Assembly: GCA_963932905.1 (NCBI GenBank)
Contig: CAWVRN010000013.1
Location: 32,001-96,000 of the forward strand
DNA: 64,000 nucleotides
Source of the DNA: an uncultured Bdellovibrio sp.
GTDB taxonomy: Bacteria > Bdellovibrionota > Bdellovibrionia > Bdellovibrionales > Bdellovibrionaceae
Direction of reading: 5' to 3'
Shown here: piece by piece, positions 27,232 through 43,879 of the stretch
How the letters are laid out: each line of letters begins with the position of its first letter
How positions within the stretch are numbered: the first letter of the stretch is position 1
Program-made: the position numbers and the translations under genes
Notes under the pieces: generated by a model
What the model saw: the letters and a program-made list of their open reading frames with translations, nothing else
Databases searched by the model: none
Told to the model about the DNA's origin: nothing

Positions 27232-27607
27232 ACTCACAGACAAACATTCGGACGACTTAAACACCTTAAGCATACGTTATGATAGCAATATTGCCAAATC
27301 GACGGTTTCCTATTTTCGAGGAAAAACGACGGGTCTAGTTTATCCCGCTAAAAGCTATTTCGTGGGAATTTGTTACGCCAAATGGATACAGCAAGACTTT
27401 GGAGATAGTTTTAAAGACAACCTAGACGATGCGGAGCTTTTATTCAAAAATGACCCTTACTTTAAACGGTATTCAGAAGCAAAAGATGTTTATGACCAGA
27501 TTCTTAGTATCGTTGGGCTTAACTTCGATGAATCGGTAGGTATTATTCCCGTGGTGCGACAATATTACCTAAATGAAATTCAACTCAAAGGATTTGATAA
27601 TCCATAA
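27194..27607 (+). CDS. Hypothetical protein coupled to the radical SAM gene
   Basis: Overlaps the end of the radical SAM gene; start taken at MKKWK. Confidence 0.6.
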   Translation: MKKWKINQQIYHKLTDKHSDDLNTLSIRYDSNIAKSTVSYFRGKTTGLVYPAKSYFVGICYAKWIQQDFGDSFKDNLDDAELLFKNDPYFKRYSEAKDVYDQILSIVGLNFDESVGIIPVVRQYYLNEIQLKGFDNP

Positions 27608-27672
27608 AACTTCTTTGTAGAAATACCGAAGTAAGTATTAATATAAATATAGATAGGAGCATCGGAGGAAGC

Positions 27673-28281
27673 TTGGAAATTCAAACTCAGTTTATCAATC
27701 CGTTTCCAGTTGAGTTACTTGTACGAGATTTCGAAATGCCTCCAAACTGGAATGAGAATTTGGATTTATTTATTCGCACCCAAGTTTTCAAAAACCAACA
27801 AATATATAATCCGAACAATCCTAGCATGTTTGATGAAATCAATATCTTTGCAAATGAATATGTTGATAAAAGTGAAGAACTGCAAATCCTCTATAAAATG
27901 TTTTACGACGGCTTTAAAGATCTTGCCCTACATAGTGACCCGAACATTTTACCTGAATCTATTTCTAAAATGGATTTTAAGGGAAAAGTCCCTTTCATGA
28001 AGTCTGGCGACTTTAAGAAAGTTCACAATCATGTTAAGGCGGATGCCTACGGAATTTTTTATTTGAATGAAATCGCACCCAAGTCTGGTGGCCAACTGAT
28101 CTTGCACCATCCTGTTTTTCACAATCAAGTATATTATACCGCTCCTGCAGAGTATCCTATTCCTCATAAAAAAAATCGCCTCATTGTTGGTCCTAGCTAT
28201 GTATGGCACGAAGTGAGCTATTATTCGGGTAAAACGGAACGGCAGGTTATATCTGCTGACTGCAACCTATTTTGGACATAA
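27673..28281 (+). CDS. 2OG-Fe(II) oxygenase-like protein
   Basis: HNH, FYLN, GGQL, PSYVWHEV and RQVIS motifs; GGAGG RBS before a TTG start. Confidence 0.8.
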   Translation: MEIQTQFINPFPVELLVRDFEMPPNWNENLDLFIRTQVFKNQQIYNPNNPSMFDEINIFANEYVDKSEELQILYKMFYDGFKDLALHSDPNILPESISKMDFKGKVPFMKSGDFKKVHNHVKADAYGIFYLNEIAPKSGGQLILHHPVFHNQVYYTAPAEYPIPHKKNRLIVGPSYVWHEVSYYSGKTERQVISADCNLFWT

Positions 28282-28293
28282 AATTTTACGCGA

Positions 28294-28845
28294 GTGAGTA
28301 TCACAATGATTACAAAAAAATATATTGGCGCCGGTGCCTATGAAGTTCAAGGTTTGGGTAATGAAATTCTTTTTCCCATTCAAAGCCTCATACCAGGGGA
28401 TGAAATTAAATTCGAACGCGAAAACGATCGCCTAATTACGGCTGCAGTTAGCCACTTACCTAGCTTATTGGGACTTTTTATCTTAAATTCTGATTACGCG
28501 CAGACCAACGTTGACCATAATCAACTTACCCGAGCCTGGGCCTGGGAGTGGCATAGTGACTCGGTAAATAACCCTCAAGTAGATTGTAAAGTAATACTCT
28601 ACTTCGTCAGTGAGGACCTTACGGAAGAAACTGGAAATCGAATTTGCTTTAGAAAAAAAACAGAAAATAATGAATACACTTACGATATAAAAAATAACTC
28701 ATTGATCGTCCAACGTTCAGATCCACACGGAGTGTATCAACACAAAAGGGAACCAAGTCGAAAACCTATCAAAAGCAGAATTATTTTGTCAATGAATTGC
28801 CTGGGCTTCGATACTTTTTTAAAAAGTGTCCCCGATGCCATATAG
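28294..28845 (+). CDS. 2OG-Fe(II) oxygenase-like protein
   Basis: WEWHSD (HxD), VILYF, distal YQH and RIILS. Confidence 0.6.
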   Translation: MSITMITKKYIGAGAYEVQGLGNEILFPIQSLIPGDEIKFERENDRLITAAVSHLPSLLGLFILNSDYAQTNVDHNQLTRAWAWEWHSDSVNNPQVDCKVILYFVSEDLTEETGNRICFRKKTENNEYTYDIKNNSLIVQRSDPHGVYQHKREPSRKPIKSRIILSMNCLGFDTFLKSVPDAI

Positions 28846-28856
28846 CACAAACTCTG

Positions 28857-29726
28857 ATGACACAATTTAAAGTCTTTATTTTTTCTATATTTTTCGGCTC
28901 TACTACGTTGTTCGCAACCGAGGAATTTCAGTTCTTTTTTCAAAATGATTTATTTATCAGAAAAAATTCTTGCGGTGAAAAAGAAATAGGATATCCAAAA
29001 GCCATAAGAATTGAAACACATTTACCCAAAAGTATTATAAAAAATAATTTGAAAATAACCGTCAAAGAGGCGAACTCCAATTTTAGCCAAACAATTATAT
29101 ACAATGGAAGTTCATTTTTTTATCCTGGGGTGTTTGGGGAAAAGGGACATTCTGAATACGGAATGCCTTTGTGTGAAGCTCATTTGGCTGGCTGTAGTTT
29201 TTTCTTTTTTGTATTCGACTTTGAAAAGCTGTCTTCTAGAAGTATTTGGAAACTTGATATCAGAATAGAAGAACTCGATTCAAAAAAAATTGTCATCGAA
29301 AAATCTAAAATTCTAGTTAAAAACGAGTTTTCAAAAAAAAAGGACGCCTATTTAATAAATGAAATCGATTTTATAGATGCCACCCCCAGCAAAAACGCGG
29401 TTGCTTTGGTTAGTCCCCAAAAAATAAAAAAAATATTAAAAGAAGGATATAATGTGGACTTCATTTTTTCGTGGAGAAGCACAGAGGAACAAATTGGCTA
29501 TTCGGAAAAATTTCATAATATAAAATTAGATAGTGAATGGATAAAACAAAATAACCCGAAATTTCCATTTAACGAAGATCCAACGAAGCCGAAAACCTAT
29601 TTGAGCTTTATGGTTTATTTGACAAAAAAAAATGTCGCTTTTGAAACAAAAATTGTTATTTTAGATAACAAGTACTCAGATTTTTTTTCTAAGTGCAAAA
29701 ACCCGACTTCATCAGGTGGAAAATGA
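28857..29726 (+). CDS. Secreted hypothetical protein (island paralog family B)
   Basis: Signal peptide from MTQFK; strong visible similarity to 43891-44733. Confidence 0.7.
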   Translation: MTQFKVFIFSIFFGSTTLFATEEFQFFFQNDLFIRKNSCGEKEIGYPKAIRIETHLPKSIIKNNLKITVKEANSNFSQTIIYNGSSFFYPGVFGEKGHSEYGMPLCEAHLAGCSFFFFVFDFEKLSSRSIWKLDIRIEELDSKKIVIEKSKILVKNEFSKKKDAYLINEIDFIDATPSKNAVALVSPQKIKKILKEGYNVDFIFSWRSTEEQIGYSEKFHNIKLDSEWIKQNNPKFPFNEDPTKPKTYLSFMVYLTKKNVAFETKIVILDNKYSDFFSKCKNPTSSGGK

Positions 29727-30646
29727 AAAAGCTATTTTTTGTATGTTTTTCGGTTGTTATAATGATACTTCTTATCTGGACATTAAGTCCAAACCCTAGC
29801 AATTTGGTTATAACGCAGCAACAGGTAAAGGAACTTTCACCTAACCAACCACCTCAGGTTGACCATGTCAGGTTTCACAATATTATCTTAACTGAGAAAA
29901 ATGAGTGCGGGCAAACCCGAGAAAGCACTATTAGGGTATTTGATTTAGTATTTTTTGCTCCTCTGGAATTGACTAGGGACAAATTGAGAATCATCGTCAC
30001 AGAAGAGGTATCGGGCAACCAGCAAGAGATTTTTTTTGATGGAAACTCATTTTTGTATAAAAAATTAAATGCCAATTCCGATGTCCAAGACTTTGGAGTT
30101 CCTGAAAAATGCATAAGCCGCGATCCGTGTCCATTTTTTGTCAAAGTAAAACCCGAATATTGGAAAAATTTGAAAAGGGAAGTTCGGTTTTCCGTGAATA
30201 TATTTAACTCAAACAACCAATCCGAACCTGCACTGGTAAAAAAATATGACACAGAAGAGAATCAATTTTTAACTTCTTTTGCCGCCCCTCGAAACGAAAT
30301 CAGTGTTTTGTCTTCATTTGATCCAAAGACAAAGACAGTTTACGCTTATTTACCTAAAACCCCCGTCATTGACCAATTGAATAAAAGTACTGAGCTGTAT
30401 TTGGTCATACAGACAAAGAACAAAGTAGAGCAAAATTTTCTAGATAAATTTGAGTTCGATGTAAACCTTTTTGGACTAGAAAAGCGCATACGTGGAGACA
30501 ATTTTGAATACAAGACTAAGATAAATTCATCAGACCCTGCTTACCTCAATACAAGCTTTTATATGATTAGAAAAAACTTGTCCGAGGCCCACAGCGTAAT
30601 TTCTATAAACAAATCTGATCCATTTTTCAATTGTTCACAACAGTAG
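29723..30646 (+). CDS. Membrane-anchored hypothetical protein (family B, divergent)
   Basis: ATGA overlap; N-terminal TM helix; KNECG and terminal FFNC motifs. Confidence 0.65.
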   Translation: MKKLFFVCFSVVIMILLIWTLSPNPSNLVITQQQVKELSPNQPPQVDHVRFHNIILTEKNECGQTRESTIRVFDLVFFAPLELTRDKLRIIVTEEVSGNQQEIFFDGNSFLYKKLNANSDVQDFGVPEKCISRDPCPFFVKVKPEYWKNLKREVRFSVNIFNSNNQSEPALVKKYDTEENQFLTSFAAPRNEISVLSSFDPKTKTVYAYLPKTPVIDQLNKSTELYLVIQTKNKVEQNFLDKFEFDVNLFGLEKRIRGDNFEYKTKINSSDPAYLNTSFYMIRKNLSEAHSVISINKSDPFFNCSQQ

Positions 30647-31667
30647 ATCGATCGATGTATGCAAAAGTTGCTTTAAACGGACAGTCCGCGGTGCTTGCGC
30701 GTTTTGTAAAGCTATGCTTTACAAAACAGCCCAAAGTGCATCGATTAAAATACTTACACTCTAGGCAATTGTATTTTTCCATAAAATTCATTTCCACAGC
30801 ACTGTTGTCATTTGATTCAATTACGACGTCAAATAGCGGCGATACAGATTTGTTTTGTAAAATCAAATTACCACATTTACATTCGGTTCCATCACCAAGT
30901 AAAAGTTTTGAACTACGACAAGACATCGTATTATAGGAATTTTCAATCCATTCCCTGATGGGATTTACTTTTGGAAAGTTATCTACAAGGTATTTAAAAA
31001 ATACAACCAAATCATCATCATTTGGCATCATTAGCTGGTAATCATCTGCCGGAGAATAATAGTCAAAATAGATATAAAAGTTTTTTTCGTACAAATATTC
31101 AAAATATCGATCGCCAGAGTTCAACATCAAACTTATAAGTGGCTTCGTAATAAGCATACTAATACAACTAATTTCGTCGGAAAAAAATTCGACGTTGCTT
31201 TTAAAAAGTTCAAAATTGCTGTGACTAAAGCGCCCCCTCGGATCATAAGATGTGACCAGGTTATATGCGATGTTATTCTTTTTAAGATCGGCGAAGAGAG
31301 CCCGTATTTGGCTCTGTCTATTATTTACTAAGTTTGAAACAAAATTGAAAACTACTTTTTTATTGTTCTTCCGAGTGAATCTATCGACTTCGTCGCAGAG
31401 GTAAAAATAGTCACTTTGCAAATTTTCGTCAAATAGGTCATCGGCAAAAATCTCGCCACCCATTATATTTATTGTAAATTCAAACCGCTCGTCTTTATCC
31501 AGCATTGCGATTAACTGTGGTACTTTATTTCTAACTTCGGCTACCCCTTTTAACGCAGAATGATCTTGCCAACAAAACTTACAGGCCAAGTTACACTTTT
31601 CAAATAGGTGCAAGGTGTACTCTTGATTGGGGCTTCGTTTGTTTTTCAAAACAAAATCGCTTATCAT
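30627..31667 (-). CDS. Radical SAM protein with SPASM/twitch-like C-terminus
   Basis: CNLACKFC, MGGE and CLECKYFNRCTLGC...CP. Confidence 0.88.
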   Translation of the reverse strand: MISDFVLKNKRSPNQEYTLHLFEKCNLACKFCWQDHSALKGVAEVRNKVPQLIAMLDKDERFEFTINIMGGEIFADDLFDENLQSDYFYLCDEVDRFTRKNNKKVVFNFVSNLVNNRQSQIRALFADLKKNNIAYNLVTSYDPRGRFSHSNFELFKSNVEFFSDEISCISMLITKPLISLMLNSGDRYFEYLYEKNFYIYFDYYSPADDYQLMMPNDDDLVVFFKYLVDNFPKVNPIREWIENSYNTMSCRSSKLLLGDGTECKCGNLILQNKSVSPLFDVVIESNDNSAVEMNFMEKYNCLECKYFNRCTLGCFVKHSFTKRASTADCPFKATFAYIDRSTVVNN

Positions 31668-32710
31668 AGTCGAACCTCAGGTTGTCTCTTTTTTACAAGA
31701 ACATTTCCGGCTTCTTTTTTATTTATTTCGATTACTTTTTTTGCTATCTCTTTCATTCCCGAACAGTGGCGTTCTATCGAGTCGTGTTGCTTCAGGTCGT
31801 GGATTGTTTTTTTACATCCGTTGCAAATATTAAACATCGGACATGTGTAACATTCAATTTTAAGTGCATTCAGTTCCGTCTGATTTAGAAGAGGTCGATG
31901 GACATTGACATCTGACATTTCCTGCTCAAAAGAAATGGGATAAAGTCGGTCATCCGCAAATGCCCCACAACTATAGTAGTCACCGGATGGCTGCAAACAT
32001 CGAATATTAGAATCGCAATTGCGATTCTGAGGGCACGTTTGATGACGTCCTGAAAATCTTTGCATCATCTGTTTAGTGTTGTATTCCCAGGGCCATAGTT
32101 CCATTTCATATATTTGCACATATATCTTATAGATTTTGGACAAAATATAGGGCTTTATTTGATCCCCGCTGGCCATCGCATAGTTCAGCTTACATTCGAC
32201 ACCCATCTGCTTAGCTAGTTCGACATTTTTAATTGCCGTGATATCGTTCTCATCGGTGATCACGGAAATGAAATCGGGTCGATAACCTACCTCATTTAAA
32301 AATAAGTCACTGACTCCCCAAAACATGGGTTCAGTATAAACTAAATCTTTTGTTATTCTGCGAGTGTCACCGAAATTAAAAGAGGTTGTAACTGAAACAC
32401 GATGATTTTTAAATAACGGAGCCCACCTAGACGGACTATTTTTAAAAGCCCACAGATTTGAGGTAAAACTTATTGAAGTCGACATTTTTTCCTGATCTAG
32501 AAATTCGATTATTTTCCAATAATAACCAGGATCTACCATCAGTGGATCTCCGCCATTAACAATTATGCTTCCCGTTTCTGGAAAACGTTTTAAAAAAGAA
32601 AATATCGTTTCTAAATCTAAGATTTTAGATTTTTCATCTGTAATATTTGTACTTGAGCAGAAAGTACATTTAAAATTGCATCGCTCAGTTGGTTTTATTA
32701 TTAATTCCAT
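31664..32710 (-). CDS. Radical SAM/SPASM protein
   Basis: IKPTERCNFKCTFC, NGGDPL, GDYYSC and CYTCPMFNICNGC. Confidence 0.9.
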   Translation of the reverse strand: MELIIKPTERCNFKCTFCSSTNITDEKSKILDLETIFSFLKRFPETGSIIVNGGDPLMVDPGYYWKIIEFLDQEKMSTSISFTSNLWAFKNSPSRWAPLFKNHRVSVTTSFNFGDTRRITKDLVYTEPMFWGVSDLFLNEVGYRPDFISVITDENDITAIKNVELAKQMGVECKLNYAMASGDQIKPYILSKIYKIYVQIYEMELWPWEYNTKQMMQRFSGRHQTCPQNRNCDSNIRCLQPSGDYYSCGAFADDRLYPISFEQEMSDVNVHRPLLNQTELNALKIECYTCPMFNICNGCKKTIHDLKQHDSIERHCSGMKEIAKKVIEINKKEAGNVLVKKRQPEVRL

Positions 32711-33804
32711 CAGTAGTTAAAGTTTCCGTATTTGTAAAAGTTGTCATTTACCGTTTTAAATCCTGCCCTAGGAGCCAGACAATCTTTATAGTCTAGTTTT
32801 TCCATCAAATAATGCATTCCCCGCCCCACACAGTTTGAGGCGTATTCGCACCCAGCACATTCTGTGGTTTTTTCAATGTATTTCAATGAATCAACCATCA
32901 TGCGATTCTCGAACTCTACAATTGTATTATAGTTCCATACGGTGTCAGCTCCCAAACCGGCATCGTCTTCATACACAATTAAAGGCTCTCCCAAAAATAC
33001 GGTAGAATATAAATTTCCATTTTTATAGACGTAATCTTTATCGTAGCCCTCATACCTTTTCCCGTAATTAAAGTTCACCTCTTGGCTCTTTTCTTCAATT
33101 ACCGCTTTTTCAAACAGCAGATTAAGATACTTGATTAGGTGGAGAACCTTTTTTTTATTCTCAGGTATCGTCAGAGGCAATCTACCTTCCGATATGACCA
33201 AATCAAGATGACCTTCTGGCCAAATTTGGTTAAAATACTTCGAAAAATCATGAAATTGATAAAGTGGATCATGCTCCTTCTGATATTCATGTAAATTTAC
33301 TATGTTGTACACGTGACCAAACTCACAGTTTGGAATAATACTTTCGAAGAGTTTAATTTTTTCTTTGATACCATTTAAATACTTTTCGTTCCTTAAGTGT
33401 TTGGGCTCTAACGGAACAGTCCATTTAACACGACGGCCAGATAAAATAGGCTTTAATTTATTCGCCCAGTATCTAACGACTTCATGATCTGCTAAAAAGG
33501 TAGAATTTAATACCAGGTTACGAAAATAATCCATCATAGGAATAATGTCTTTATTAAGAATTTCATCGGTATTGCGAGCACTCATAAAATCCGTGGCGCC
33601 AACAGCCAAATTTATCAAGACATGATTGTTATCCTTAAGATCCTGAAACAAATCCATAAGTCGTCTGAAATCATTTCCAATAAATCCGTTAGCGTCGTCT
33701 TTGTTGATACGACATCCTGTACACTTCCACTTACAACCGCTCAAAACCTCTAAATTTATATCAACTAAAAAGTGGGATTGGTAATTAGCCAAGATTTCCT
33801 CCAA
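32710..33804 (-). CDS. Divergent radical SAM-like protein
   Basis: CKWKCTGC and C-terminal CAGCEYASNC...CLAP; lacks the GGE motif. Confidence 0.72.
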   Translation of the reverse strand: MEEILANYQSHFLVDINLEVLSGCKWKCTGCRINKDDANGFIGNDFRRLMDLFQDLKDNNHVLINLAVGATDFMSARNTDEILNKDIIPMMDYFRNLVLNSTFLADHEVVRYWANKLKPILSGRRVKWTVPLEPKHLRNEKYLNGIKEKIKLFESIIPNCEFGHVYNIVNLHEYQKEHDPLYQFHDFSKYFNQIWPEGHLDLVISEGRLPLTIPENKKKVLHLIKYLNLLFEKAVIEEKSQEVNFNYGKRYEGYDKDYVYKNGNLYSTVFLGEPLIVYEDDAGLGADTVWNYNTIVEFENRMMVDSLKYIEKTTECAGCEYASNCVGRGMHYLMEKLDYKDCLAPRAGFKTVNDNFYKYGNFNY

Positions 33805-34855
33805 ACGCTCGATTAACTCGCGCTGAATGATAAAATTTTAATTCTTCCGGATTTTTAAAAAAAGTCGTCGTCGCAAAATCTATAAAATAGTTGTTCAAAG
33901 TTAGACCAAATTTAGATTGCCCTATGAAATTTCTAATTCGGCTATTTAAATCTAAATCTAAAATAGCGTCTATAGAAATATCGAAATTTAACTTTAACCA
34001 TTCAAAGGCAACGTCCAAAAGTGGATTCGGCAAGTACTGTCTTACCTTCGACAACTCCCGCTGAATATCTTTGATATCATAGTGAGACTCTAAAAAATTA
34101 TTTCGATTGACCGCCACCTGTCCATCCATCATAAACTTTAAAAAATTTTCGCTGTAACGTTCTGCATGTTTAGTCATCTCGTCTATGAAAGAGTAACTGG
34201 ACAGCAGTTCAGCTCGCAAATCTAAAAGTAATAAAACTTGTGTTTCTTGAAGATCTTTCGTCAGTTGCTTCTTTGTTCCTTCCGGGAGTGGCATTTTTGC
34301 AGAGATATAATCAACATAGGCATTCTCAAAAGGCAGAATATGCCAATAGTCAAACCGATCTCCGAAAATACCTCTGTTGGATTTTTTTATTGTTTTAGGC
34401 CGCGATGCCTGAACAAATTTATCTATTTTATGAGCCAAATCCTTAGTCAGATTCCCGGCTGCCGTTCGGCTCCTTAGCAGTCTATATTCATATCTATCTA
34501 GTACCATTTGAAATAAAAAGTTGGCCCGAGACTGATCGATATCCGGCATCATGCTAAACACCCAGTCACTGTATACAGCTATAAAATTCTCTACATCACA
34601 GTAGATGATCGTTTGACCTTCAGATTTAATCAAATTACTCCAAAATACACTTAATCCATCAGAGTTTGAACTAACAAAATCAATATAAGAATCTTGGCTG
34701 TAAACGACGTTACCAAAGATTAGTCCTGTTAAATTCTTTTCCTCTTCTGAAAAAACACTCCAGCGATTCCCCGCCTCACCAAAAAACACCAAGTTTTGAC
34801 TGTTTCGTATATCAAAATCAGGAGCCAGAAAAACGTTACCGACTAAGTTAATCAT
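33785..34855 (-). CDS. Hypothetical protein (island paralog family A)
   Basis: MINLVGNVFL...IIYCD...LNNYFIDF; overlaps both neighbours. Confidence 0.7.
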   Translation of the reverse strand: MINLVGNVFLAPDFDIRNSQNLVFFGEAGNRWSVFSEEEKNLTGLIFGNVVYSQDSYIDFVSSNSDGLSVFWSNLIKSEGQTIIYCDVENFIAVYSDWVFSMMPDIDQSRANFLFQMVLDRYEYRLLRSRTAAGNLTKDLAHKIDKFVQASRPKTIKKSNRGIFGDRFDYWHILPFENAYVDYISAKMPLPEGTKKQLTKDLQETQVLLLLDLRAELLSSYSFIDEMTKHAERYSENFLKFMMDGQVAVNRNNFLESHYDIKDIQRELSKVRQYLPNPLLDVAFEWLKLNFDISIDAILDLDLNSRIRNFIGQSKFGLTLNNYFIDFATTTFFKNPEELKFYHSARVNRAFGGNLG

Positions 34856-35930
34856 TCAGCGCCAACTCTGTTAATTCAAAGCCGATATTTTGCAACTCGG
34901 TAGCGGCGTTTTCCATTAAAAACAATAAATATGGATTCAAGTACTCGCGAACTCTTAACGATTTTAGAATTTTAGCTGAAGCTACTTTTTCTTTACTTTT
35001 GGTTAGAATTTCTAAAGTAAAAAATGGAGATGATCGATCAAGAAACACATTTTGAAAAATTGGCGCATATTCATTGTACTGCAATTCCAAGGCTTGCAGA
35101 TGGATTTTACTGTTATCAAATTCAAATAGCAGCTTATAAATTTCAGGGGCGAGCCTTGCAAGTTCATTACGTCGATTTTTCGACCAAGAAATCTGATCGA
35201 TTCCAATCATTTTCTCAATTCTATAATAAGAATCTATCAAAGGCAGCACAACGTCCTCTTCAAATTCTGTCAGACTTCCTACATTCAAAGTATTGAGTGT
35301 ATTCAAAAGCATACCTTGCGAAGGTTTAAAATCACCATTTGTATAGTAATTTACAAAAAACAAATCTAAATTAACTTGATCATACAGTTGCGTCTTGATC
35401 TTCTGATTTATTCTCCAAGCAAATGTATTTTCCCATATGAGTTTAATAAAACCAGCCGAAACGACCTGATGAATTTGATCGTGCAATTGTCCGCTAAAAC
35501 TATGGACAGATATTGACGATTGATTGCCGGCGTTTCCATCAATAAACTTTATCTTTTTTAAAAAAATGTTGATCAAAAAATCAAATGCTTCAAATCCCAT
35601 GTTAGGCAAAATTGTCTTAAACAATTTTGCTTTTAAATAAACCATATTTTCAATATCGCTGAAAATAAAAAGCAAATTGGGTTCTGAAGATTCAATCATC
35701 CATTCAACAAACGCGCTGTCGTCATTTTTGAATTTTTCTTCGACAAACGACCACAGCTGAGAACAACCAAATCGCTGCTTCGAATTGTCTAATTTTAGAC
35801 CGTTTAAGCCTCTGGAAGGGTCAAATCCACGTGCATAGGATTCGTATTCTTTAAAAATTCCTAAATGATTCGCGTTTACATCGAATTCAACAAAATTTTT
35901 TAAAAACACCTTACCAAACAATTGATACAT
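34848..35930 (-). CDS. Hypothetical protein (island paralog family A)
   Basis: MYQLFGKVFL...FIFSD...LNPYLLFL; operon-coupled. Confidence 0.7.
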   Translation of the reverse strand: MYQLFGKVFLKNFVEFDVNANHLGIFKEYESYARGFDPSRGLNGLKLDNSKQRFGCSQLWSFVEEKFKNDDSAFVEWMIESSEPNLLFIFSDIENMVYLKAKLFKTILPNMGFEAFDFLINIFLKKIKFIDGNAGNQSSISVHSFSGQLHDQIHQVVSAGFIKLIWENTFAWRINQKIKTQLYDQVNLDLFFVNYYTNGDFKPSQGMLLNTLNTLNVGSLTEFEEDVVLPLIDSYYRIEKMIGIDQISWSKNRRNELARLAPEIYKLLFEFDNSKIHLQALELQYNEYAPIFQNVFLDRSSPFFTLEILTKSKEKVASAKILKSLRVREYLNPYLLFLMENAATELQNIGFELTELALND

Positions 35931-35933
35931 AAA

Positions 35934-36710
35934 TTAGCTGACCGTAATGCGATCAAGCTCTTTACCTACCAGGTCTATTTGCTGTTCAGTGAACGCCTTT
36001 TTCAAAACTGCGCCTACGACAGCGTAGAGTTCGGGGCTTGATTGCATGGTTTCAGCAAACAAATTTTTTCCGTTATAAAAAAACTCTTCAAATTGAGGTT
36101 TAAAATAAAAAGCGGTCGTAGTTGAAAAAGTTCCGAAATAATTTATATAAAACATAGGCATTTTCAATAAATTCACGAAAGTAAAACCGGTGAATTCCAT
36201 ATCGTCAACAACGGAAAAATGAGCTTCCGGAGGTGAACCTAAATCTCGAAATTCTTTGGAGCAGGTGTATATAAAGGTAGGAATACTATCAAGAAGCACG
36301 ATAAGCCGAAGCATATTATTCATTCGATCTGCGTCTTCCAAATAGTCCCGAACTCGCTCTCTAGAGATTAATGAGTAGGTGTCTAAAATCTGTTGTTCCG
36401 CTTCAGACAACTCGATCCCTTTAATTTCAGCCAGAATTCGAACAATCGAAAATTTTATATTCACCAAATCTATTGTCGATTTAAACGTGACATAGCTATC
36501 AATTAAAGAGAAAAAATCATCTTCAATACTATTTGATTTTTCAAAATAAACATTCGCCACATTAATGTTGCTTAAATAAATCAACAGAGCGCGGTCTTTG
36601 ATTTGACATGCTTTATAATCACCAATGACTTTTAAATCAGGATTGGCGATAACTAATTTCAAGTCATCCATACTAAGCGGAAACTTAGTTCGTAATTCCA
36701 TTGTACTCAT
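35934..36710 (-). CDS. Hypothetical protein translationally coupled to the candidate substrate
   Basis: ATGA overlap with 36707-37354; 258 aa. Confidence 0.7.
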   Translation of the reverse strand: MSTMELRTKFPLSMDDLKLVIANPDLKVIGDYKACQIKDRALLIYLSNINVANVYFEKSNSIEDDFFSLIDSYVTFKSTIDLVNIKFSIVRILAEIKGIELSEAEQQILDTYSLISRERVRDYLEDADRMNNMLRLIVLLDSIPTFIYTCSKEFRDLGSPPEAHFSVVDDMEFTGFTFVNLLKMPMFYINYFGTFSTTTAFYFKPQFEEFFYNGKNLFAETMQSSPELYAVVGAVLKKAFTEQQIDLVGKELDRITVS

Positions 36711-37354
36711 CGGCGCCCCCTAGCGCCATGACAGCTGCCATGGCACGAAGAATGGCACCACGTCTCTACAAAAACTATCGGATTAGCGGCTCTATCATTT
36801 GCTAAATGCAAAGCTAGAGCATCGATGAAAGCAATAATCGGTTGAGATTCCACCCACGAACCAACCCCAGGAAAAGCAGGCCCGATCCCGGCATAATTGA
36901 CGACATCGAAATTCAAATGAATTTGCCCGGCCATAGGCCCATATTGATTAACCATAGTTCCAAAGTTATTATAATTTTTTTGAATTGTATAATTGCGATA
37001 ACGACTAAGCGTTGAGAATACAGTTCTAATAAAACCCGCCACACTGGCTACCGAAACTCGCTGAGCCACATCAACGCCAGCAGCCTGAATTTCCGCGCTC
37101 GTCACCGCAGTGCGAACGGTTTGACCTGCGCCTAACTGACTAGATCCATCTCCCGTCGCCACACCATTTCTAGTTGTGCTGCTATAACTACCAGAAATGG
37201 GCCTATTGTTTACAAAAGGATTGTTATTAGGATCACCGCCGGGACTTCCGCTGTGAGTTTTGCTTGCTGCATTTATAGCCGCCACAGTTATATTAAGTTG
37301 ATCGCGAATTTGATCTCTAAATACCGCATCAATTCTGGTTCCCCGAGCCCCCAC
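36707..37354 (-). CDS. Candidate radical SAM substrate/structural protein with C-terminal (CHxx)3-RGRR tail
   Basis: Gly/Ala/Ser/Asn-rich body; all three Cys lie in the tail WCHSSCHGSCHGARGRR; AGGAG RBS before GTG; lies among radical SAM genes. Confidence 0.7.
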   Translation of the reverse strand: MGARGTRIDAVFRDQIRDQLNITVAAINAASKTHSGSPGGDPNNNPFVNNRPISGSYSSTTRNGVATGDGSSQLGAGQTVRTAVTSAEIQAAGVDVAQRVSVASVAGFIRTVFSTLSRYRNYTIQKNYNNFGTMVNQYGPMAGQIHLNFDVVNYAGIGPAFPGVGSWVESQPIIAFIDALALHLANDRAANPIVFVETWCHSSCHGSCHGARGRR

Positions 37355-37363
37355 GCCAGTCTC

Positions 37364-38521
37364 CTATTCTTTGCCTACAAATTTATTCAGCATTTTTCTA
37401 TATAGGTTGATATCATTTTTTTCTTTTAATTCTTGCATTAACGTCTTGGGCGAGGCACACAGATCCCCCTGCCACGCTAATTGATGACAATCGCCATTAC
37501 ATACATCAAATACGTCACAGGAATAACATATCGGATTTCTTTGAACCTCACACAATATATTTTTCGAACGTCCCGGCGACGACAATAACTCAGGAATAGG
37601 CATAGATAGATGAGCATATGGCTGAGTTGCGGCTGAATTCGGACACCCACCAATGCTGCCGTCCGCGTTCAAAGTGAAAATTTTTTGTTCACAACCCCGA
37701 CATCTACACCCCGTATGGGCTCGATTAACCAAACTAGTTAAAATTGAATTAAAAAACAAATTTGTAAATTTTGTATAAGACTCTAGCTTTACCGTTGCCC
37801 GCCAAAGTTTCAAAAACCAATCGTCCAATTCTTTATTTGTTGGAATGACACCCTGATTAACAAGCGCATTACCATTTGGGGTAATTCTTTCTAGATGCAA
37901 ATACTGAACACCCAAGTCAGCAAACCATTTTAAAAAATCTTCGACATCCATTTGGATAACATCTTTGGACAAACTGATCATAACAGTGACTTCGTGGCCA
38001 TCCTGAAGAAGCGTATTAACATTTTTTCGCCAAAGAGTCTCTTGATGTTCTGACTGAAAACGAATGCCTCTATCCCAAGAGGTCGCAATACCTTGGGAAA
38101 ATGCCGTTTTCATAAACTGTCGTTTTTCATCATCAAGGTTATAAACCAAATTCGTGGTAGCCGACCACCAAACGTTTGGCCACAAATTGCGACAGCTATT
38201 CCATACTTTATACATAGAAGAAATTGGTGCCAAAAATGGCTCTCCTCCATGAAAGGCCACATGACCATTTTTCAAGTGTGGAACAACTTGGTGAAATCTA
38301 TGAAACCAATCAACCACAGCATCTGGGTCAAAAAAAATCTTTTTTCCGTTTTTGCCACTAGTGAAACAATGCGAACAGTTTAGCTGGCAGGTTTCCGTTG
38401 TCTTTAGATAGACCATCAAATCAGAGACCCTTAAAAACGAAGACAGGTTAAGGCCACGCTTAATTTGCGGATCAACAGAACGGTCATTAAAACTTGAGGA
38501 CGTATCTTTTAATTCTATCAT
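37364..38521 (-). CDS. Radical SAM/SPASM peptide- or protein-maturase-like enzyme
   Basis: LKTTETCQLNCSHC, FHGGEPFL, DGSIGGCP and CYSCDVFDVCNGDC...C. Confidence 0.92.
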   Translation of the reverse strand: MIELKDTSSSFNDRSVDPQIKRGLNLSSFLRVSDLMVYLKTTETCQLNCSHCFTSGKNGKKIFFDPDAVVDWFHRFHQVVPHLKNGHVAFHGGEPFLAPISSMYKVWNSCRNLWPNVWWSATTNLVYNLDDEKRQFMKTAFSQGIATSWDRGIRFQSEHQETLWRKNVNTLLQDGHEVTVMISLSKDVIQMDVEDFLKWFADLGVQYLHLERITPNGNALVNQGVIPTNKELDDWFLKLWRATVKLESYTKFTNLFFNSILTSLVNRAHTGCRCRGCEQKIFTLNADGSIGGCPNSAATQPYAHLSMPIPELLSSPGRSKNILCEVQRNPICYSCDVFDVCNGDCHQLAWQGDLCASPKTLMQELKEKNDINLYRKMLNKFVGKE

Positions 38522-38609
38522 CAGCTCTAATCATCGCTGTATGGGCCAAGATGTCAATCCGTTAGTCGCCCTTTCTGCTGCGCAAAGGGACCAGCATCAC
38601 ATAATATGA

Positions 38610-39578
38610 TTAGTTAGCATTTAATCGGCCTTCCAGAAGATTTATTTTTTTTATCAACTCTTGCCGTTTAATATAAACTTGCTTGTGATACTCCCATAGT
38701 ACCGGAATGACTGCTGAATAATTTAATGTAGAAATGCCAGTGGGATTTGACACGCCCGCATAGGGTAAATCCTTTAGAATCTCTTGAGCAATAAAGCCTA
38801 GATGCTGTCCTTTATAGTTTTTGAGCTTGTACCTGTAACCATGAATGGATTCAAAGGTCTGGCCACTGACCGCGATTTTTTTGATGTCAGTTTTCAGAGA
38901 CACGTCGGAAGCATTACCTAGGTGATTCACCCGCAAATTAGGTGCTGTGGCTGCCGGAAAAGCTTCATCAACCAGGACTTCTCCACCGATTTCCACATTG
39001 CCTTCGAAGGTTATGTCTCCTTGTTTAGTTTCAGCTCCATTTATGCGAATAAAGGAATTGCTTAGTACCATCGCGGTCGCACTACCACATGTTGTTACCC
39101 TGCCTAAGCCATCGATCGTGCCCTCAAGAGGTATATGCAGAGTCATTTGTCTGACTCCCTGGCCCTTATTGTATCCATACGTGACAGCGATATTAAACGT
39201 GACATTTGGCGCCGCAACAATAAGATCGGACACCTGCGCACCTATTACGTCCACCGTTCCGTTATTCAAGTCATTTAATGGAAAGGTCAACACCACACCA
39301 TTAGCACCATCACGGATAGTGGGAATATTTTGACCGTTAGCAAGAGCGCCCGCTGTCGCGTTAAACGTATTCAAACAACCCGTTTGTTGATTAAAAAGAC
39401 TGTCCATATTTAAATGCAAGGGCGCTATAAATCTTTCCGATCTAATTAACTGAAGCTCTTCCATAGTTGAAATGTAGAGCTGAGTTGTAGAAAAAATAAT
39501 TCCGGCCAAAAGAGCAACACCCACAAGCAGTTCTGTGAGCGAAATACCTCGCTGATTTCCAACAAATTTAATTTTCAA
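38610..39578 (-). CDS. Type IV prepilin-like protein fused to a C-terminal Peptidase S74-like intramolecular chaperone
   Basis: QRG|ISLTELLVG prepilin motif (TTG start at 39578); SDVSLK...GFIAQEI...LNYSAVIP plus coiled coil. Confidence 0.8.
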   Translation of the reverse strand: MKIKFVGNQRGISLTELLVGVALLAGIIFSTTQLYISTMEELQLIRSERFIAPLHLNMDSLFNQQTGCLNTFNATAGALANGQNIPTIRDGANGVVLTFPLNDLNNGTVDVIGAQVSDLIVAAPNVTFNIAVTYGYNKGQGVRQMTLHIPLEGTIDGLGRVTTCGSATAMVLSNSFIRINGAETKQGDITFEGNVEIGGEVLVDEAFPAATAPNLRVNHLGNASDVSLKTDIKKIAVSGQTFESIHGYRYKLKNYKGQHLGFIAQEILKDLPYAGVSNPTGISTLNYSAVIPVLWEYHKQVYIKRQELIKKINLLEGRLNAN

Positions 39579-39579
39579 T

Positions 39580-40191
39580 TTATTTAACTTTAACCCAGTG
39601 GCGGCCATTAACATCTACCTTCTTTTTTTCCGTTCCAAATATCGTATCGAATTCGGGTTTTTTATAAATAGCCAATAAGCGCTCAGGAAATTTTAACTTT
39701 TCTTCAGTCGTCATTTCACTCAAAATGCCCTCTTCATTGTTTGTCAGCGGTGTACCTGGCTCATATGTATTGTCTACATAGGCCAACACCCAACCACTGA
39801 CAGCGATTGGCACCTGCCGCTGACTCGGATAACGCCCTTGCCCGACAGCAAATCCAAAAGTATCCGAAGCAATTCCTATCGCACTTTTTTGACATCGTTG
39901 ATTGCATATTTTGGCGCCGTCAAATGTGTCATAATAACATTTTCCAAACACGATTTCATCACATACCAGCTGAAAATCTGCTATATCATTCCAGACAGCT
40001 CCCCAAACTTTTTCAGCGGCAAACTCTCCAGAAGCAGCACCACCAAGCGCTGTAGTGACAACTAAATCCACTCCCCCAGCAGCCACAGTTACGACTCCAG
40101 AGCCATCAATGTTACAGGTTTTAATAGTGGCCGCGGATTGAGCTTGCTGACCTATGAAAAGAGTGTGTATCAGTTGGGAAAGTTTTTGCAT
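39580..40191 (-). CDS. Phage tail-like protein with a peptidase G2-like autocleavage/chaperone domain
   Basis: KVWGAVWNDIADF...IGIASDTFGF...VPIAVSGWVLAY...GTPL...WVKVK. Confidence 0.55.
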   Translation of the reverse strand: MQKLSQLIHTLFIGQQAQSAATIKTCNIDGSGVVTVAAGGVDLVVTTALGGAASGEFAAEKVWGAVWNDIADFQLVCDEIVFGKCYYDTFDGAKICNQRCQKSAIGIASDTFGFAVGQGRYPSQRQVPIAVSGWVLAYVDNTYEPGTPLTNNEEGILSEMTTEEKLKFPERLLAIYKKPEFDTIFGTEKKKVDVNGRHWVKVK

Positions 40192-40200
40192 GCTGATCTC

Positions 40201-41241
40201 CTAGTTACTTTTAATCCTTAGTTTGGTTTCTATTTTGTCTAATCGTTTTTCTAACTTCCTATTTTCCTTTGACATATTTTTATAAGACTCATGAAGAATA
40301 GGTACAAATCCCGAATAATTGACCGTCTTTTTACCATCAGTTTTTCGAGCAGAAACAAGCTGAGGCAGAACTTTTTCAACATCCTGAGCAATGAAGCCAT
40401 AGTCTCGCCGTCCATCTTGTTTCCATGAAAACTCTTTCCCTTCAATTAAAGAAAAAACTTCATCGAAATTTACTAAAAGAGGTTTGATGTCCGATTTAAA
40501 ACGCCTATCCGACAAAGTGTAAACTCCACCATAGGATCGTATCGATCCAGACTGTGCTGGATTTCCACCACCACCAGCCCAAGCAACCACGTTCATATTT
40601 CCTTCTATTGTCAAACTACCCTGCTTGGCTGTGCTATCATAACGATCACGCTGCACATAAGCGTTCGGATCATATCCAAAACCTGCCGATGTCCCCGCAG
40701 TACAACGATGGTAAGTATTCTGATCTAGAGCATTGTAATCTGGTACCAAGCGCTGACCTACTGCCGTCGGCACCGTAGTTCTAATTGTAATCACTCGATC
40801 CATGTTTCGAGTCGTCCCGCCTGTTCCGATTGGCACGCGATAGCGAATATTTAAGTCAAAACTACCGGTGTAGGGCAATGGCGCACCCGCGGCCGGATTC
40901 TGCAGAAAATTAGTCGCACGCATCCGAGTAATCGAAATGTTTTGATAGTAAGGCCCACCAGCAGTCGCATACAGTACCGTGTTAAATGAGTTTCTTATGC
41001 TCGCAATATTTGTAAACAGTGCCGCACGATTAATCCCGGTAAAGGTATTGTAGCATCCATTAGGGTTGGTTAGGGCCAACAATATGTGAGCATGAAGTTC
41101 TTCAACATTTAAAGTTAACCGAGTTTCCAAGAAATGCTTCTGAGTCGCCATTAGTAATGCTGAAATTAGCAAAGTCACTAAGGCAAGCCCACCGACATAT
41201 ACAACAAACTCTATCAAGGTAAACCCACGCCTATTCATCAC
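40201..41241 (-). CDS. Type IV prepilin-like protein fused to a Peptidase S74-like chaperone
   Basis: RRG|FTLIEFVV; SDRRFKSDIKPL...FSWK...GFIAQDVEKVLPQLV...VNYSG plus coiled coil. Confidence 0.85.
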   Translation of the reverse strand: MMNRRGFTLIEFVVYVGGLALVTLLISALLMATQKHFLETRLTLNVEELHAHILLALTNPNGCYNTFTGINRAALFTNIASIRNSFNTVLYATAGGPYYQNISITRMRATNFLQNPAAGAPLPYTGSFDLNIRYRVPIGTGGTTRNMDRVITIRTTVPTAVGQRLVPDYNALDQNTYHRCTAGTSAGFGYDPNAYVQRDRYDSTAKQGSLTIEGNMNVVAWAGGGGNPAQSGSIRSYGGVYTLSDRRFKSDIKPLLVNFDEVFSLIEGKEFSWKQDGRRDYGFIAQDVEKVLPQLVSARKTDGKKTVNYSGFVPILHESYKNMSKENRKLEKRLDKIETKLRIKSN

Positions 41242-42352
41242 GTCCTCCGCTGGTCTTACCAGTGACAGGACCCAGTTTTCGGTCAGCTAAAGATTCGAGC
41301 TGCTGAATTTTTCTTTCTAACTTAATATTTTGCTGATCGATTGATTTAGTGGCCTCAAGTAAGATTGGCAATAGGGCCTGATAATCAACACGTTTAATTC
41401 CGGTGCCTTCATCAGACGAAACCACTTCTGGAAAAATAGATTCAACTTCCTGGGCGACAAAACCAATGTCTTTACGCTGTCCCTCTTTCCATTGAAATGA
41501 GTAGCCATTCAACGTCATTAGGTCTTTTGGTTTAATCACTAAAGGCTGCATATTTTGCTTAAGTTTTTTATCGGATATTGTAAAAACCCCACCCTGGACG
41601 CCTAAATCACCACCGACACTTAGGTTTCCTCCGGTCATTCTAAATACAAATCCTTGAGGTTCGTCAGCAGTGTTTCCCCTTGCATCTGTAGTCATTTTAG
41701 ATTTGGTGTCAATTCCTGTCTTAGAAAGATAATTGGCAGGATTAAAGCCAAACGAGGTGCCGTTTTCGGGAGCAGCATGACATCGCTCGGGCTGCTTCAC
41801 AACTGCGCTTCCTGCGGCCCAGGTGTTGGCCGGATTCGTTTCCGTTCGAACAATAAATCGACGAACTTTACTTATTGTCGAAGACGGCGAAACACGAACA
41901 AGATAATTTACTGTGACCCGAAAAAATCCTGTGAAAGGAGCCGGAACACCACCGCCAGCAGTAAATGTATCCGCAGTCATCGACGTAATCTGAATACTTC
42001 TATTGTAGAATGTATTAAGCACATAAACAGGGACTGGTACCGCAGGAGCTTGTGCGCCACTCATAATTTGATTAAAAGCAACCTGTCCTGGAGCAATAAC
42101 CATCCCGCTAAACGTATTGAAACAAGCATGCCTGTTCGACAAAGTAAAAACAATTTGAGCATGTAAATCGTCCACAAGAATATTACCACGAGTCTCGAAA
42201 AAAAAAGCTCGCGTAGATAAAATCGAATTGTTAATCGCTACGGAAACCACACCAAGAATTACCAAAGTAATCAAAATTTGAATAATGGAAAAACCCTTTG
42301 AATTGGATCTTTCAATAACTTTAAGAAGAATAAATTTAGACTTTTGTTTCAT
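41231..42352 (-). CDS. Type IV prepilin-like protein (Gln at +5) fused to a Peptidase S74-like chaperone
   Basis: SKG|FSIIQILITL; SDKKLKQNMQPL...FQWK...GFVAQEVESIFPEVV...VDYQAL plus coiled coil. Confidence 0.85.
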   Translation of the reverse strand: MKQKSKFILLKVIERSNSKGFSIIQILITLVILGVVSVAINNSILSTRAFFFETRGNILVDDLHAQIVFTLSNRHACFNTFSGMVIAPGQVAFNQIMSGAQAPAVPVPVYVLNTFYNRSIQITSMTADTFTAGGGVPAPFTGFFRVTVNYLVRVSPSSTISKVRRFIVRTETNPANTWAAGSAVVKQPERCHAAPENGTSFGFNPANYLSKTGIDTKSKMTTDARGNTADEPQGFVFRMTGGNLSVGGDLGVQGGVFTISDKKLKQNMQPLVIKPKDLMTLNGYSFQWKEGQRKDIGFVAQEVESIFPEVVSSDEGTGIKRVDYQALLPILLEATKSIDQQNIKLERKIQQLESLADRKLGPVTGKTSGGRDE

Positions 42353-42403
42353 TTGGAAATTAATTTTATTGTGCCCCTTTAAAGAGTATTATACAATACA
42401 ACT

Positions 42404-42751
42404 ATGGAAAGAAGATTTTTTTTTAAATTCCTATCCGGCCTTACGATGTTTTCTGGTCTAGCAAGTTTGAAACAAGATTCATCTCATATTGACCCGTCTC
42501 CAAACGAGAAAAGACACCAAGTTTTTTTAAAGCCAGGGTCGAAGTATTACCTACCTGAAAATCCCAACCACATGGACTTCATAGTTTTTAGACTAACTGA
42601 TAGTTTTCAAACTAACCCGACTCAAGTCCATGCACATAAGCATAAACTTATCGGCCAGAACGAACCCTTGTTAGTAGACTACGATACAGATTTTGGTCTT
42701 AGGTTTTTAGGCGACCAAACTGGATGGGTACTTGTTCGACTTGAGTCTTGA
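42404..42751 (+). CDS. Small protein with a twin-arginine-like signal and a phage baseplate/tail-connector-like domain
   Basis: MERRFFFK followed by a hydrophobic stretch; LPENP...D...F.TNP..V....LIG...L.F.....GW pattern. Confidence 0.5.
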   Translation: MERRFFFKFLSGLTMFSGLASLKQDSSHIDPSPNEKRHQVFLKPGSKYYLPENPNHMDFIVFRLTDSFQTNPTQVHAHKHKLIGQNEPLLVDYDTDFGLRFLGDQTGWVLVRLES

Positions 42752-42757
42752 TACCCC

Positions 42758-43879
42758 ATGAGTTCTTTCCTAAAAAGAAAATTTATTTTTCTTCTATTTT
42801 TTTTGATTTCGGTAGTTTTCGTCTTTTACTCAATAAAATTTAAAAAAAGCACTTCGGTTTCATCTCGACTGAATAGAACAGTTGTGGTGTCATACAACGA
42901 TTTAAACGAATCGTTACTCAACTCTAAATTGATTCAGATTATATCTTTAGGCGTGAAGGAAATTTACGTTCGGATTGAAAGCCAAATTCACATTACCTGC
43001 AGTTTTAAGGTCGAGGATCCGTGCCGCGTTGACAAATCACAAGTAAATTCTGTTGCTGCCTGGCAGAGTTTTTTAAAAGCGCTCGGTGAAAAAGGAATCA
43101 CCGCAAACTTAGTCTATGATCTGAATATCAATAATTTTTCATATAAGATGCACTCCTACAAGTCTGAAAGGGGCCGAATTGAAGGTCCAAGTAGCGTCGG
43201 CAATCTTAAAAGTAGATTCATTTTTCAAAATACTAAATTTATCGAAATTATTAAAAGTGATTTTAATATAATTTCGGGGCTAACAGATTTCAAAAGGGTT
43301 TTTTTTGGATCAGATCTGGATTTGTTTTTTTCTCAATTGCCAGATATCACTATAATCCAAAGCGAAGTGCAGGGATTCTGGAAGCTCATTAAGCAATTAA
43401 AAGAGATAAATCCAAACAAGTCATTATCTTCGTGTTTTAACTACGAACACTTGAAGGGTTCACTTTTCTGGGGCGCTATGGACAAAACTCAAATGCGCAA
43501 GCAAGACGAATTTTGTTTTTCCTCGTTTCCAACTCAAATTAAATGGGCTAAAAAATTTGGTATTGAAAAACAATTTGTTCTTCTTGATTCCCCAAAGGAC
43601 GATTTCACCTCCGACTACTATGACAGTCTAGTAACAATTGGCCTAACAGAAAAACCTATTCATATTGTCGGATTTGCCTACCCTTTGCTACCAGAAGAAA
43701 AGGACTTGCAGGCAAAAGTCTTGAATACAGTTTTGTATGCGCTTCCACGATATATAGCTTCAGTAGCCTGGGAAAACCGGCTTTCCCTTAACGATCAAAA
43801 AAATCTAGCCGAGTCTATGAGTATTTGGCATGAACAGGATTTTAATTTGAATAGTTCTGGTAGTATGTTTTTCGAATGA
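42758..43879 (+). CDS. Membrane-anchored hypothetical protein, possibly a degenerate glycoside-hydrolase-like barrel
   Basis: N-terminal TM helix; FFGSD, FSSFP and GFAYP strand motifs. Confidence 0.4.
   Translation: MSSFLKRKFIFLLFFLISVVFVFYSIKFKKSTSVSSRLNRTVVVSYNDLNESLLNSKLIQIISLGVKEIYVRIESQIHITCSFKVEDPCRVDKSQVNSVAAWQSFLKALGEKGITANLVYDLNINNFSYKMHSYKSERGRIEGPSSVGNLKSRFIFQNTKFIEIIKSDFNIISGLTDFKRVFFGSDLDLFFSQLPDITIIQSEVQGFWKLIKQLKEINPNKSLSSCFNYEHLKGSLFWGAMDKTQMRKQDEFCFSSFPTQIKWAKKFGIEKQFVLLDSPKDDFTSDYYDSLVTIGLTEKPIHIVGFAYPLLPEEKDLQAKVLNTVLYALPRYIASVAWENRLSLNDQKNLAESMSIWHEQDFNLNSSGSMFFE

Follow-up and report, generated by a model that had tools for sequence, protein, structure and literature searches.

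Four tightly packed genes on the reverse strand fill positions 38610-42352 of the window, a stretch of 64,000 nucleotides from the genome of an uncultured Bdellovibrio sp. (assembly GCA_963932905.1, contig CAWVRN010000013.1, positions 32,001 to 96,000). Three of them, here called A, B and C, encode a predicted pilin module joined to a C-terminal S74 intramolecular chaperone; the fourth, D, encodes a probable stand-alone relative of a second chaperone type, that of phi29 gp12. The reading favoured here, which we hold with modest confidence, is that S74 acts in the periplasm, where it would fold a short stub as a trimer and then release itself by cleavage; the remaining pilin trimer would prime or cap a type IV filament and serve as an adhesin.

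The genes run in the order A-B-D-C (Table 1). A runs 11 nt into the start of B, a gap of 9 nt separates B from D, and D overlaps C by about 30 nt. The true start of C is probably its third codon, at 39608, because orthologues point there. The three pilin-S74 genes are paralogous, with identities to A of 32% for B and 21% for C. The original prediction for this interval described three pilin-S74 genes, which are present, and overlooked D.

Pfam Peptidase_S74 (PF13884, IPR030392) matches the C-terminus of all three proteins over its cut-off of 22 (A 45.1, B 49.7 and C 40.2 bits) and is found in 56/56 aligned members of the family. The dyad motif S-D-x-x-x-K reads SDKKLK in A (260-265), SDRRFK in B (244-249) and SDVSLK in C (236-241), and is followed in each by GF(I/V)AQ and a C-terminal helix. 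Its Ser, Asp and Lys are invariant in all 56 members; S74 chemistry is therefore under selection. In B numbering, C63, S244, D245, K249 and G282 are invariant across this alignment, and C180, A285 and Q286 are nearly so. PHROG tail-fibre families match the last 100-150 residues of A, B and C with E values down to 3e-25, and the sole sequence match in the PDB is the long tail fibre of phage S16 (6f45, E 1.2e-6).

The working structural model is an AlphaFold2 (AF2) model of B built on the 56-row alignment, with a mean predicted local distance difference test score (pLDDT) of 81.7. It takes the place of a first model, of A on a 6-row alignment, which reached a pLDDT of 50.4 and gave no Foldseek match at E <= 0.001. 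Residues 244-346 of the B model exceed a pLDDT of 90. In a wide fold search this part matches the intramolecular chaperone (ICA) domain of MyRF (7dc3_A, Z 9.4, root-mean-square deviation 2.2 A over 122 residues), the K1F endosialidase chaperone (3gw6_A, Z 7.1), T5 pb1 (4uw8_A, Z 6.2) and GA-1 (3gud_B, Z 6.0). Foldseek with the B model finds 7dc3_B in the PDB (E 4.5e-4, probability 1.00). BFVD yields 279 viral matches at E <= 0.001; among the best 50 of these 279, every named one is a tail-fibre, baseplate, neck-appendage or S74/chaperone protein. The original prediction had called the C-termini S74-like with Ser and Lys of the dyad intact, and had listed the second Cys, GF(I/V)AQ and the C-terminal helix; all of these are present in the three proteins, and the Pfam, PHROG and fold matches bear out the domain assignment. 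Judged by sequence and fold, the C-termini are true S74 intramolecular-chaperone domains, for which self-cleavage itself is predicted.

The N-terminal half of each protein is predicted to be a pilin module. The leader ends and the mature chain begins with ...SKG / FSIIQ in A, MMNRRG / FTLIE in B and, after G23, ISLTE in C; the prepilin signature G / (F/I)xxx(E/Q) and the hydrophobic helix behind it are complete with Glu in B and C, and A has Gln at +5. All three share an LH-x12-C-x-NTF core (C77 in A, C63 in B, C80 in C) and a second Cys (C191, C180 and C176). Cleavage site, hydrophobic stretch and common core thus stand as first described. In the genome as a whole the strict prepilin pattern occurs in only 13/6054 open reading frames (ORFs) of at least 80 aa, or 14/6054 if Gln is allowed at +5, yet it sits on three of the four S74-bearing frames; the fusion is therefore not due to chance.

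The B model shows this half as a long helix (9-58, about 50 residues) together with a short helix and a sheet (81-155), with a pLDDT of about 90. Among the best 50 matches of the wide fold search, 16 are pilins or pseudopilins (Z 3.6-5.1, over residues ~30-190), including XcpV/W (5bw0, Z 5.1), S. sanguinis PilB (7b7p, Z 5.0), TTHA1218 (Z 4.9), GspI (3ci0_I, Z 4.8) and PilV (5v23, Z 4.8). The best 50 Foldseek matches of the same model in the PDB are S74 chaperones only, with no pilin among them.

Only ~40-55 residues lie between the second Cys and the catalytic Ser. This stub carries a tail-fibre-like K-x-G-x-(L/I)-T-x-x-G motif; a trimeric fold is assumed for it because it stands directly before S74 and because the PHROG tail-fibre matches reach upstream of S74. 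The mature part, from the leader Gly to the Ser, measures 212-239 aa, and the predicted product is therefore a pilin with a short stub and no long fibre. A complex prediction on the soluble pilin modules A 49-195, B 35-184 and C 52-180, each given an alignment of its own orthologues, scored 0.00 and 0.00 against a mark of 0.32; it was run without controls and informs neither way.

Gene D matches no family in Pfam (E <= 0.1) or PHROG. In a protein atlas it scores 0.95 against viral clusters; in one of these, 69% of the members carry Peptidase_G2 (PF11962). A profile of seven D orthologues matches phi29 gp12 (6qz9_A, 647-746, E 0.0065) across the cleavage motif: W67-N68-D69-x-x-D72-F73 of D, invariant in 7/7, aligns with W690-S691-D692-x-x-E695-Y696 of gp12, in which we take Ser691/Asp692 to be the autocleavage site. 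On this alignment D is probably a stand-alone relative of the gp12-type self-cleaving chaperone, with cleavage predicted. D has a conserved A-x-A near residue 19 and a weak hydrophobic core (Kyte-Doolittle 1.3-1.7 over 11 residues); a Sec signal is considered for it.

The pilin-S74 family is small. When the pilin module of B (residues 1-243) was searched against 1.84 billion representatives, only 21 matches were obtained: 14 with S74, six N_methyl pilins with other, often Cys-rich C-terminal modules, and one low-complexity artefact. The module is present in 6/9 other genomes of the same genus, and all six keep the same order: up373 and the divergent up115 (both described below), then pilin-S74, pilin-S74, D and pilin-S74. 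The pilin-S74 genes are mostly 30-37% identical between species (56-64% in the closest species). In contrast, D is the best-conserved gene of the cassette, at 60-83% between species of the genus; stronger divergence of the pilin-S74 genes is expected of exposed binding proteins.

A survey of D with one genome per species yields 30 loci, of which 29 are titled Bdellovibrionota and one is an unclassified metagenome-assembled genome (MAG). Carriers include Pseudobdellovibrionaceae or Bdellovibrionaceae MAGs, Bacteriovoracaceae, Peredibacter sp. HCB2-198, Halobacteriovorax and Bacteriovorax. In 24/30 loci D has one or more pilin-S74 genes within 6 kb. The loci with none near D are L026, L039, L040, L041, L044 and L045; two of these, L026 and L041, are cut off by the contig end less than 1.3 kb downstream of D. 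A trio is found in 7/30 loci, most Bacteriovoracia loci have a single pilin-S74 gene, and a homologue of up115 is present in 16/30.

The favoured mechanism can be set out in steps. A, B and C would be modular minor pilins of a type IV filament, either a type IV pilus or a type II-secretion pseudopilus. The class III signal would insert each chain in the inner membrane, and the prepilin peptidase of the genome would remove the leader after the Gly. In the periplasm the S74 domain would join three chains and fold the tail-fibre-like stub of 40-55 aa into a stable trimer; it would then remove itself at the conserved Ser through the Ser/Lys dyad. The product would be three pilin modules joined at their C-termini. 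Such a pilin trimer would start filament assembly and remain at the tip, as is proposed for CofB and TcpB. The stub, now uncovered, and the variable surface of the pilin would there serve as an adhesin, plausibly for prey surfaces. D, seen as a self-cleaving mini-fibre of another kind, and up115 with its Tat signal would be conserved accessory parts. The assembly machinery is encoded elsewhere in the genome: it contains one prepilin peptidase (on contig C35), 8 T2SSE ATPases over cut-off, 4 secretins and T2SSF platform proteins.

The three genes of the trio have differentiated. Their order is kept in seven genomes of a single genus and in a further Bdellovibrionales MAG. In a quick IQ-TREE tree of the 56 members, supported by the Shimodaira-Hasegawa-like approximate likelihood-ratio test (SH-aLRT) only, all third-position genes of the genus group in a single clade (7/7, SH-aLRT 100), and the first- and second-position genes are joined in another (96); 5/7 first-position genes share one clade (100). 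Since the clades follow gene position, the triplication is old and every copy has been kept. Glu at +5 is found in 0/8 first-position genes but in 8/8 second-position and 8/8 third-position genes; the eight trio genomes are close kin, and these counts by position are not independent.

Such differentiation could mean that A, B and C form one A:B:C heterotrimer, a fairly unlikely alternative in which the Glu5-less first product sits on top as GspK does on GspI-GspJ, and the three S74 domains co-fold the stub. The conserved order, the retention of every copy, the position-specific loss of Glu5 and the start and stop codons, which overlap or lie 9 nt apart, all speak for it, and a GspK-I-J heterotrimer is named by Raynaud et al. 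(PMC8179133). However, all matched solved S74 assemblies are one-chain homotrimers, and a homotrimer must suffice in most Bacteriovoracia loci, where a single pilin-S74 gene stands beside D. The trio, unlike GspK-I-J, lies outside any secretion or pilus operon, and the kinship of the eight genomes and the quick tree with its single kind of support count against this alternative as well.

Several results weigh against the filament-tip reading itself. Pfam N_methyl (PF07963 / IPR012902) scores A, B and C at 16.9, 16.0 and 15.5 bits (E 0.005-0.013), all below its cut-off of 21.2. The pilin fold matches of B are weak, at Z ~5 or less, and unrelated chains score alike. The stub of B (185-239) falls below a pLDDT of 50 in the monomer model. 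Glu5 is replaced in the eight first-position genes by Q, Q, Q, Q, L, M, Q and S. A C3 trimer fits helical pilus symmetry only with flexible linkers. Family scans detect no pilus assembly genes in the window or among 59 ORFs of five related loci. Finally, a D profile finds its target in 22/401 sampled genomes of the phylum and in 0/26 of genus g9, which are mostly single-contig genomes; the cassette is therefore an accessory, patchy module and not a core part of predation.

The first of these points touches the claim that the N-termini score as prepilins. It held for the motif, for the fold model and for relatives, which pass the N_methyl cut-off in the same columns: the Peredibacter orthologue L033 (23.4 bits), the Bacteriovorax MAG L028 (24.4), P0005 (21.8) and P0036 (21.7). 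It did not hold for the trio of the window, which stays under the cut-off. N_methyl is matched at E <= 0.05 in 34/56 aligned family members, and many members have a non-canonical +5 residue (Q, M, L, S, A or G).

The trimer might also never enter a filament. The pilin-like N-terminus would then be a signal-anchor or export tag, and the trimer would stay in the inner membrane or periplasm or be released. The sub-threshold N_methyl scores, the non-canonical +5 residues, the poor fit of trimer symmetry to a filament and the lack of assembly genes linked to the cassette would all follow. However, a whole pilin module is conserved and not a helix alone: the ~50-residue helix, the sheet and the Cys pair are kept across the 56 members. 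The closest relatives that lack S74 (6/21) are N_methyl pilins of the ordinary kind with different modules at the C-terminus. We consider a non-filament trimer rather improbable. Five genomes of the genus, among them carriers and non-carriers of the cassette, gave no match to PilY1 (PF05567) or PilX_N (PF14341); the control for PilY1 was negative in 14/14 control genomes, so the PilY1 blank is uninformative.

Table 1. Features of the cassette, its neighbours and the adjoining low-GC island (positions in the window)
Feature	Position	Strand	Length	Description
gene A	41231-42352	-	373 aa	first pilin-S74 gene; leader 1-20, Gly20-Phe21 cleavage; pilin module ~21-195 (C77, C191); stub ~196-259; S74 from Ser260 (Lys265) to end
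gene B	40201-41241	-	346 aa	second pilin-S74 gene; leader MMNRRG then FTLIE; helix 9-58; sheet 81-155; C63, C180; stub 185-239; S74 Ser244 (Lys249)-346
gene D	39580-40191	-	203 aa	no pilin; probable phi29 gp12-type (Peptidase_G2-like) chaperone relative, stand-alone
gene C	38610-39614	-	334 aa	third pilin-S74 gene; leader ...NQRG then ISLTE (Glu at +5); C80, C176; S74 from Ser236 (Lys241) to end
up115	42404-42751	+	115 aa	divergent small gene; twin-arginine (Tat-like) N-terminus
up373	42758-43879	+	373 aa	N-terminal hydrophobic anchor
rSAM1	37364-38521	-		radical SAM/SPASM
215-aa protein	36707-37354	-	215 aa	ends CHSSCHGSCHGARGRR (WCHSSCHGSCHGARGRR)
p258	35934-36710	-		belongs to set downstream of C
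p364	32710-33804	-		belongs to set downstream of C
rSAM2	31664-32710	-		radical SAM/SPASM
rSAM3	30627-31667	-		radical SAM/SPASM
2OG-Fe(II) oxygenase	27673-28281			low-GC island
phrog_20737 protein	27161-27607			low-GC island
phrog_1802 radical SAM	26287-27231			low-GC island
2OG-Fe(II) oxygenase	25541-26158			low-GC island
B12-binding radical SAM	20694-22571			low-GC island

The divergent gene next to A, up115, has a twin-arginine N-terminus in 17/17 orthologues. Its atlas entry starts only at residue 15, and public gene calls may miss the Tat-like signal. As a lead only, the atlas model resembles small viral tail-fibre or baseplate proteins or T4 gp9/10-N-like proteins. The gene beyond it, up373, is kept beside the cassette within the genus at 25-38% identity; family scans gave no match for it.

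Downstream of C, a same-strand set (30627-38521) consists of three radical SAM/SPASM genes, a 215-aa protein and four proteins without assigned function. rSAM1 is 55% identical to gp171 of the jumbo phage Atu_ph07, and the set is syntenic with gp164-gp171 of that phage, including a protein ending CHSSCHxSCHxxRxRR. The counterpart of the 215-aa protein is Atu_ph07 gp170, which ends ...CHSSCHASCHNSRSRR. The 215-aa protein, with its C-x3-C repeat tail, is a likely substrate of a radical SAM/SPASM maturase because it comes directly after one. The set lies near D in many Bacteriovoracia loci. In three sister species (L014-L016), however, the ~10 kb downstream contain none of the radical SAM genes, which were therefore rejected as an obligatory part of the cassette. 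C and rSAM1 are 88 nt apart, and the gap holds a sigma-70-like match on the reverse strand (38530-38557, TTGACA-16-GATGAT, 10/12), which may separate the pilin cassette from the radical SAM genes; taken as a whole, the search for promoters and terminators over 30000-43000 stayed at shuffle level (32 versus 36.0 expected and 13 versus 10.0 expected).

The flanks of the cassette are low in GC. The remainder of the low-GC island (0.34-0.36) occupies 20694-30646 and encodes further radical SAM proteins and two 2-oxoglutarate (2OG)-Fe(II) oxygenases (Table 1); several of its ORFs have no family match. The fourth S74 protein of the genome lies on another contig (C31:41373-43568, forward strand) in a 731-aa frame with a Sec-type signal, MKKEKTKLLVFPLLLVAMVFLFGSLSMA..., and is predicted to be a conventional fibre like the mosaic adhesive trimers (MATs) discussed below. 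In Peredibacter sp. HCB2-198 (L033, 119-4336), sugar-modifying genes stand directly upstream of up115, pilin-S74 and D; these upstream genes encode a DegT aminotransferase, a PIG-L deacetylase, an epimerase, a polysaccharide deacetylase and a radical SAM protein, and may hint at a link to glycosylation. A 13.7-kb IMG/VR contig filed as viral (L051) holds D, the pilin-S74 gene P0036, a Tat-signal gene and two of the radical SAM genes; this contig is a piece of a Bacteriovoracia genome wrongly filed as viral, or else a mobile element or virus that carries the cassette.

These phage-like neighbours allow two further explanations. It is conceivable, if improbable, that a phage-type receptor-binding apparatus has been rebuilt on the end of a type IV filament: an A:B:C heterotrimeric, self-cleaved tip with the Glu5-less subunit on top, combined with D, a Tat-exported gp9/10-like adaptor and perhaps radical SAM modification, would serve fast-evolving prey recognition. 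The genes could also be cargo of a degraded prophage or phage-like particle, with A, B and C as fibres on a viral baseplate. A likeness to parts of viral tail fibres is common to S74, D and the Tat-signal protein, and the synteny with Atu_ph07, the IMG/VR contig and the low-GC flanks point the same way. However, the ORFs of the window that were scanned (11 + 52 against Pfam, 12 + 19 against PHROGs) gave no match to a capsid, terminase, portal, sheath, tube or integrase family, there is no transfer RNA gene in the window, and tblastn of D against 50,697 phage records gave no match. In true viral contigs the D-like domain forms the C-terminus of 630-aa proteins, and class III and Tat export signals would be pointless for virion parts assembled in the cytoplasm. 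Phage cargo is thus very unlikely.

The fusion of pilin and S74 has already been catalogued, uncharacterised, and pilins that sit as trimers at the pilus tip have been described before. Dataset S1 of Raynaud et al. (PNAS 2021, PMC8179133) lists the architecture IPR012902-IPR030392 for 29 proteins and for 4 more with a further domain, with 'peptidase activity' as the sole comment there. The original prediction was right that the fusion is real and overstated how unusual it is, given these 29 proteins. The catalogued modular pilins have the same two-signature architecture as A, B and C; the clade described here differs in its own pilin module with the C-x-NTF core, its partner D and the fixed trio in one genus. 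Independent examples are the PilV/Shufflon_N-type pilins P0008, P0009 and P0015, which also end in S74 and suggest two or more separate origins of the fusion. On the reading of the 2021 survey, filed under 'peptidase activity', S74 would be a working peptidase displayed on pili to cut other substrates, which is barely credible, since characterised S74 domains act once, in cis, and are then released, Bd3182 self-cleaves at S782 and is blocked by S782A (PMC10769870), and S74 is no longer on the pilin once cleaved. In a full-text literature search, nothing was found that joins pilins with Peptidase_S74 or the endosialidase chaperone, or modular pilins with Bdellovibrio; for modular pilin and S74 together, Raynaud et al. 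was the only hit. The sole published comment on this architecture would thus be corrected to a predicted trimerise-and-leave mechanism.

What is new is a predator-specific pilin-S74 clade, a conserved cassette of four genes that includes a putative self-cleaving chaperone of another type, a fixed trio with a Glu5-less first member, and a phage-like neighbourhood. The cassette touches on what type IV pilus tips contain, how pili acquire binding specificity and how Bdellovibrio-like predators recognise prey. Peredibacter sp. HCB2-198 is a cultured carrier with a complete genome and a single-gene version, which makes genetics feasible.

Among known pilins, the closest parallel is with CofB of colonisation factor antigen III (CFA/III) in enterotoxigenic Escherichia coli (ETEC) and TcpB of the toxin-coregulated pilus (TCP) in Vibrio cholerae. 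Both are type IVb minor pilins found as trimers at the pilus tip; they trimerise by a C-terminal extension and are proposed to initiate assembly, and CofB docks the secreted, separately encoded CofJ (PMC8179133). Modular pilins in general are argued there to be exposed at the tip. A, B and C share with CofB and TcpB a pilin module and a C-terminal trimerising extension, here predicted, and the pilin-S74 architecture is thereby linked to trimeric tip pilins; by analogy, D could play a CofJ-like part. CofB and TcpB differ in having no S74 domain or self-cleavage and in being encoded inside pilus operons, unlike A, B and C. Neither is among the best 50 matches of the wide fold search with the B model, which does not exclude the likeness.

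In predators, S74 is known from the MAT fibres of Bdellovibrio bacteriovorus (Caulton et al., Nat Microbiol 2024, PMC10769870), S74-terminated trimeric adhesins for which self-cleavage of Bd3182 has been shown and the S-D-x-x-x-K motif named. Like the MATs, A, B and C are encoded by a predator, end in S74 and carry export signals. MATs have a Sec signal, a conserved beta-rich N-domain of ~130 aa and a very long trimeric fibre (PMC10769870), and membership of A, B and C among them was rejected on account of the class III signal, the pilin module and a mature part of only 212-239 aa. The word 'pilin' appears nowhere in the MAT paper.

The trio also resembles GspK-I-J in consisting of three distinct tandem minor (pseudo)pilins, one of them Glu5-less, here the product of the first gene. 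GspK lacks Glu5. In contrast to the trio, GspK-I-J has no trimerising C-terminal extension or chaperone and is encoded in a secretion operon. If the fixed trio with its one Glu5-less member is heterotrimeric, it would be the first S74-driven hetero-assembly.

Finally, A, B and C share their S74 type with K1F 3gw6, T5 pb1 4uw8, S16 gp37 6f45 and GA-1 3gud. In phages, S74 and gp12 chaperones end long fibres assembled in the cytoplasm, whereas here they end a pilin (A, B and C) or a stub of ~65 aa (D) and are accompanied by export signals. The cassette is thus a testable case of phage fibre-folding chemistry, both S74 and gp12-type, that would have been moved onto pilins and into the periplasm.

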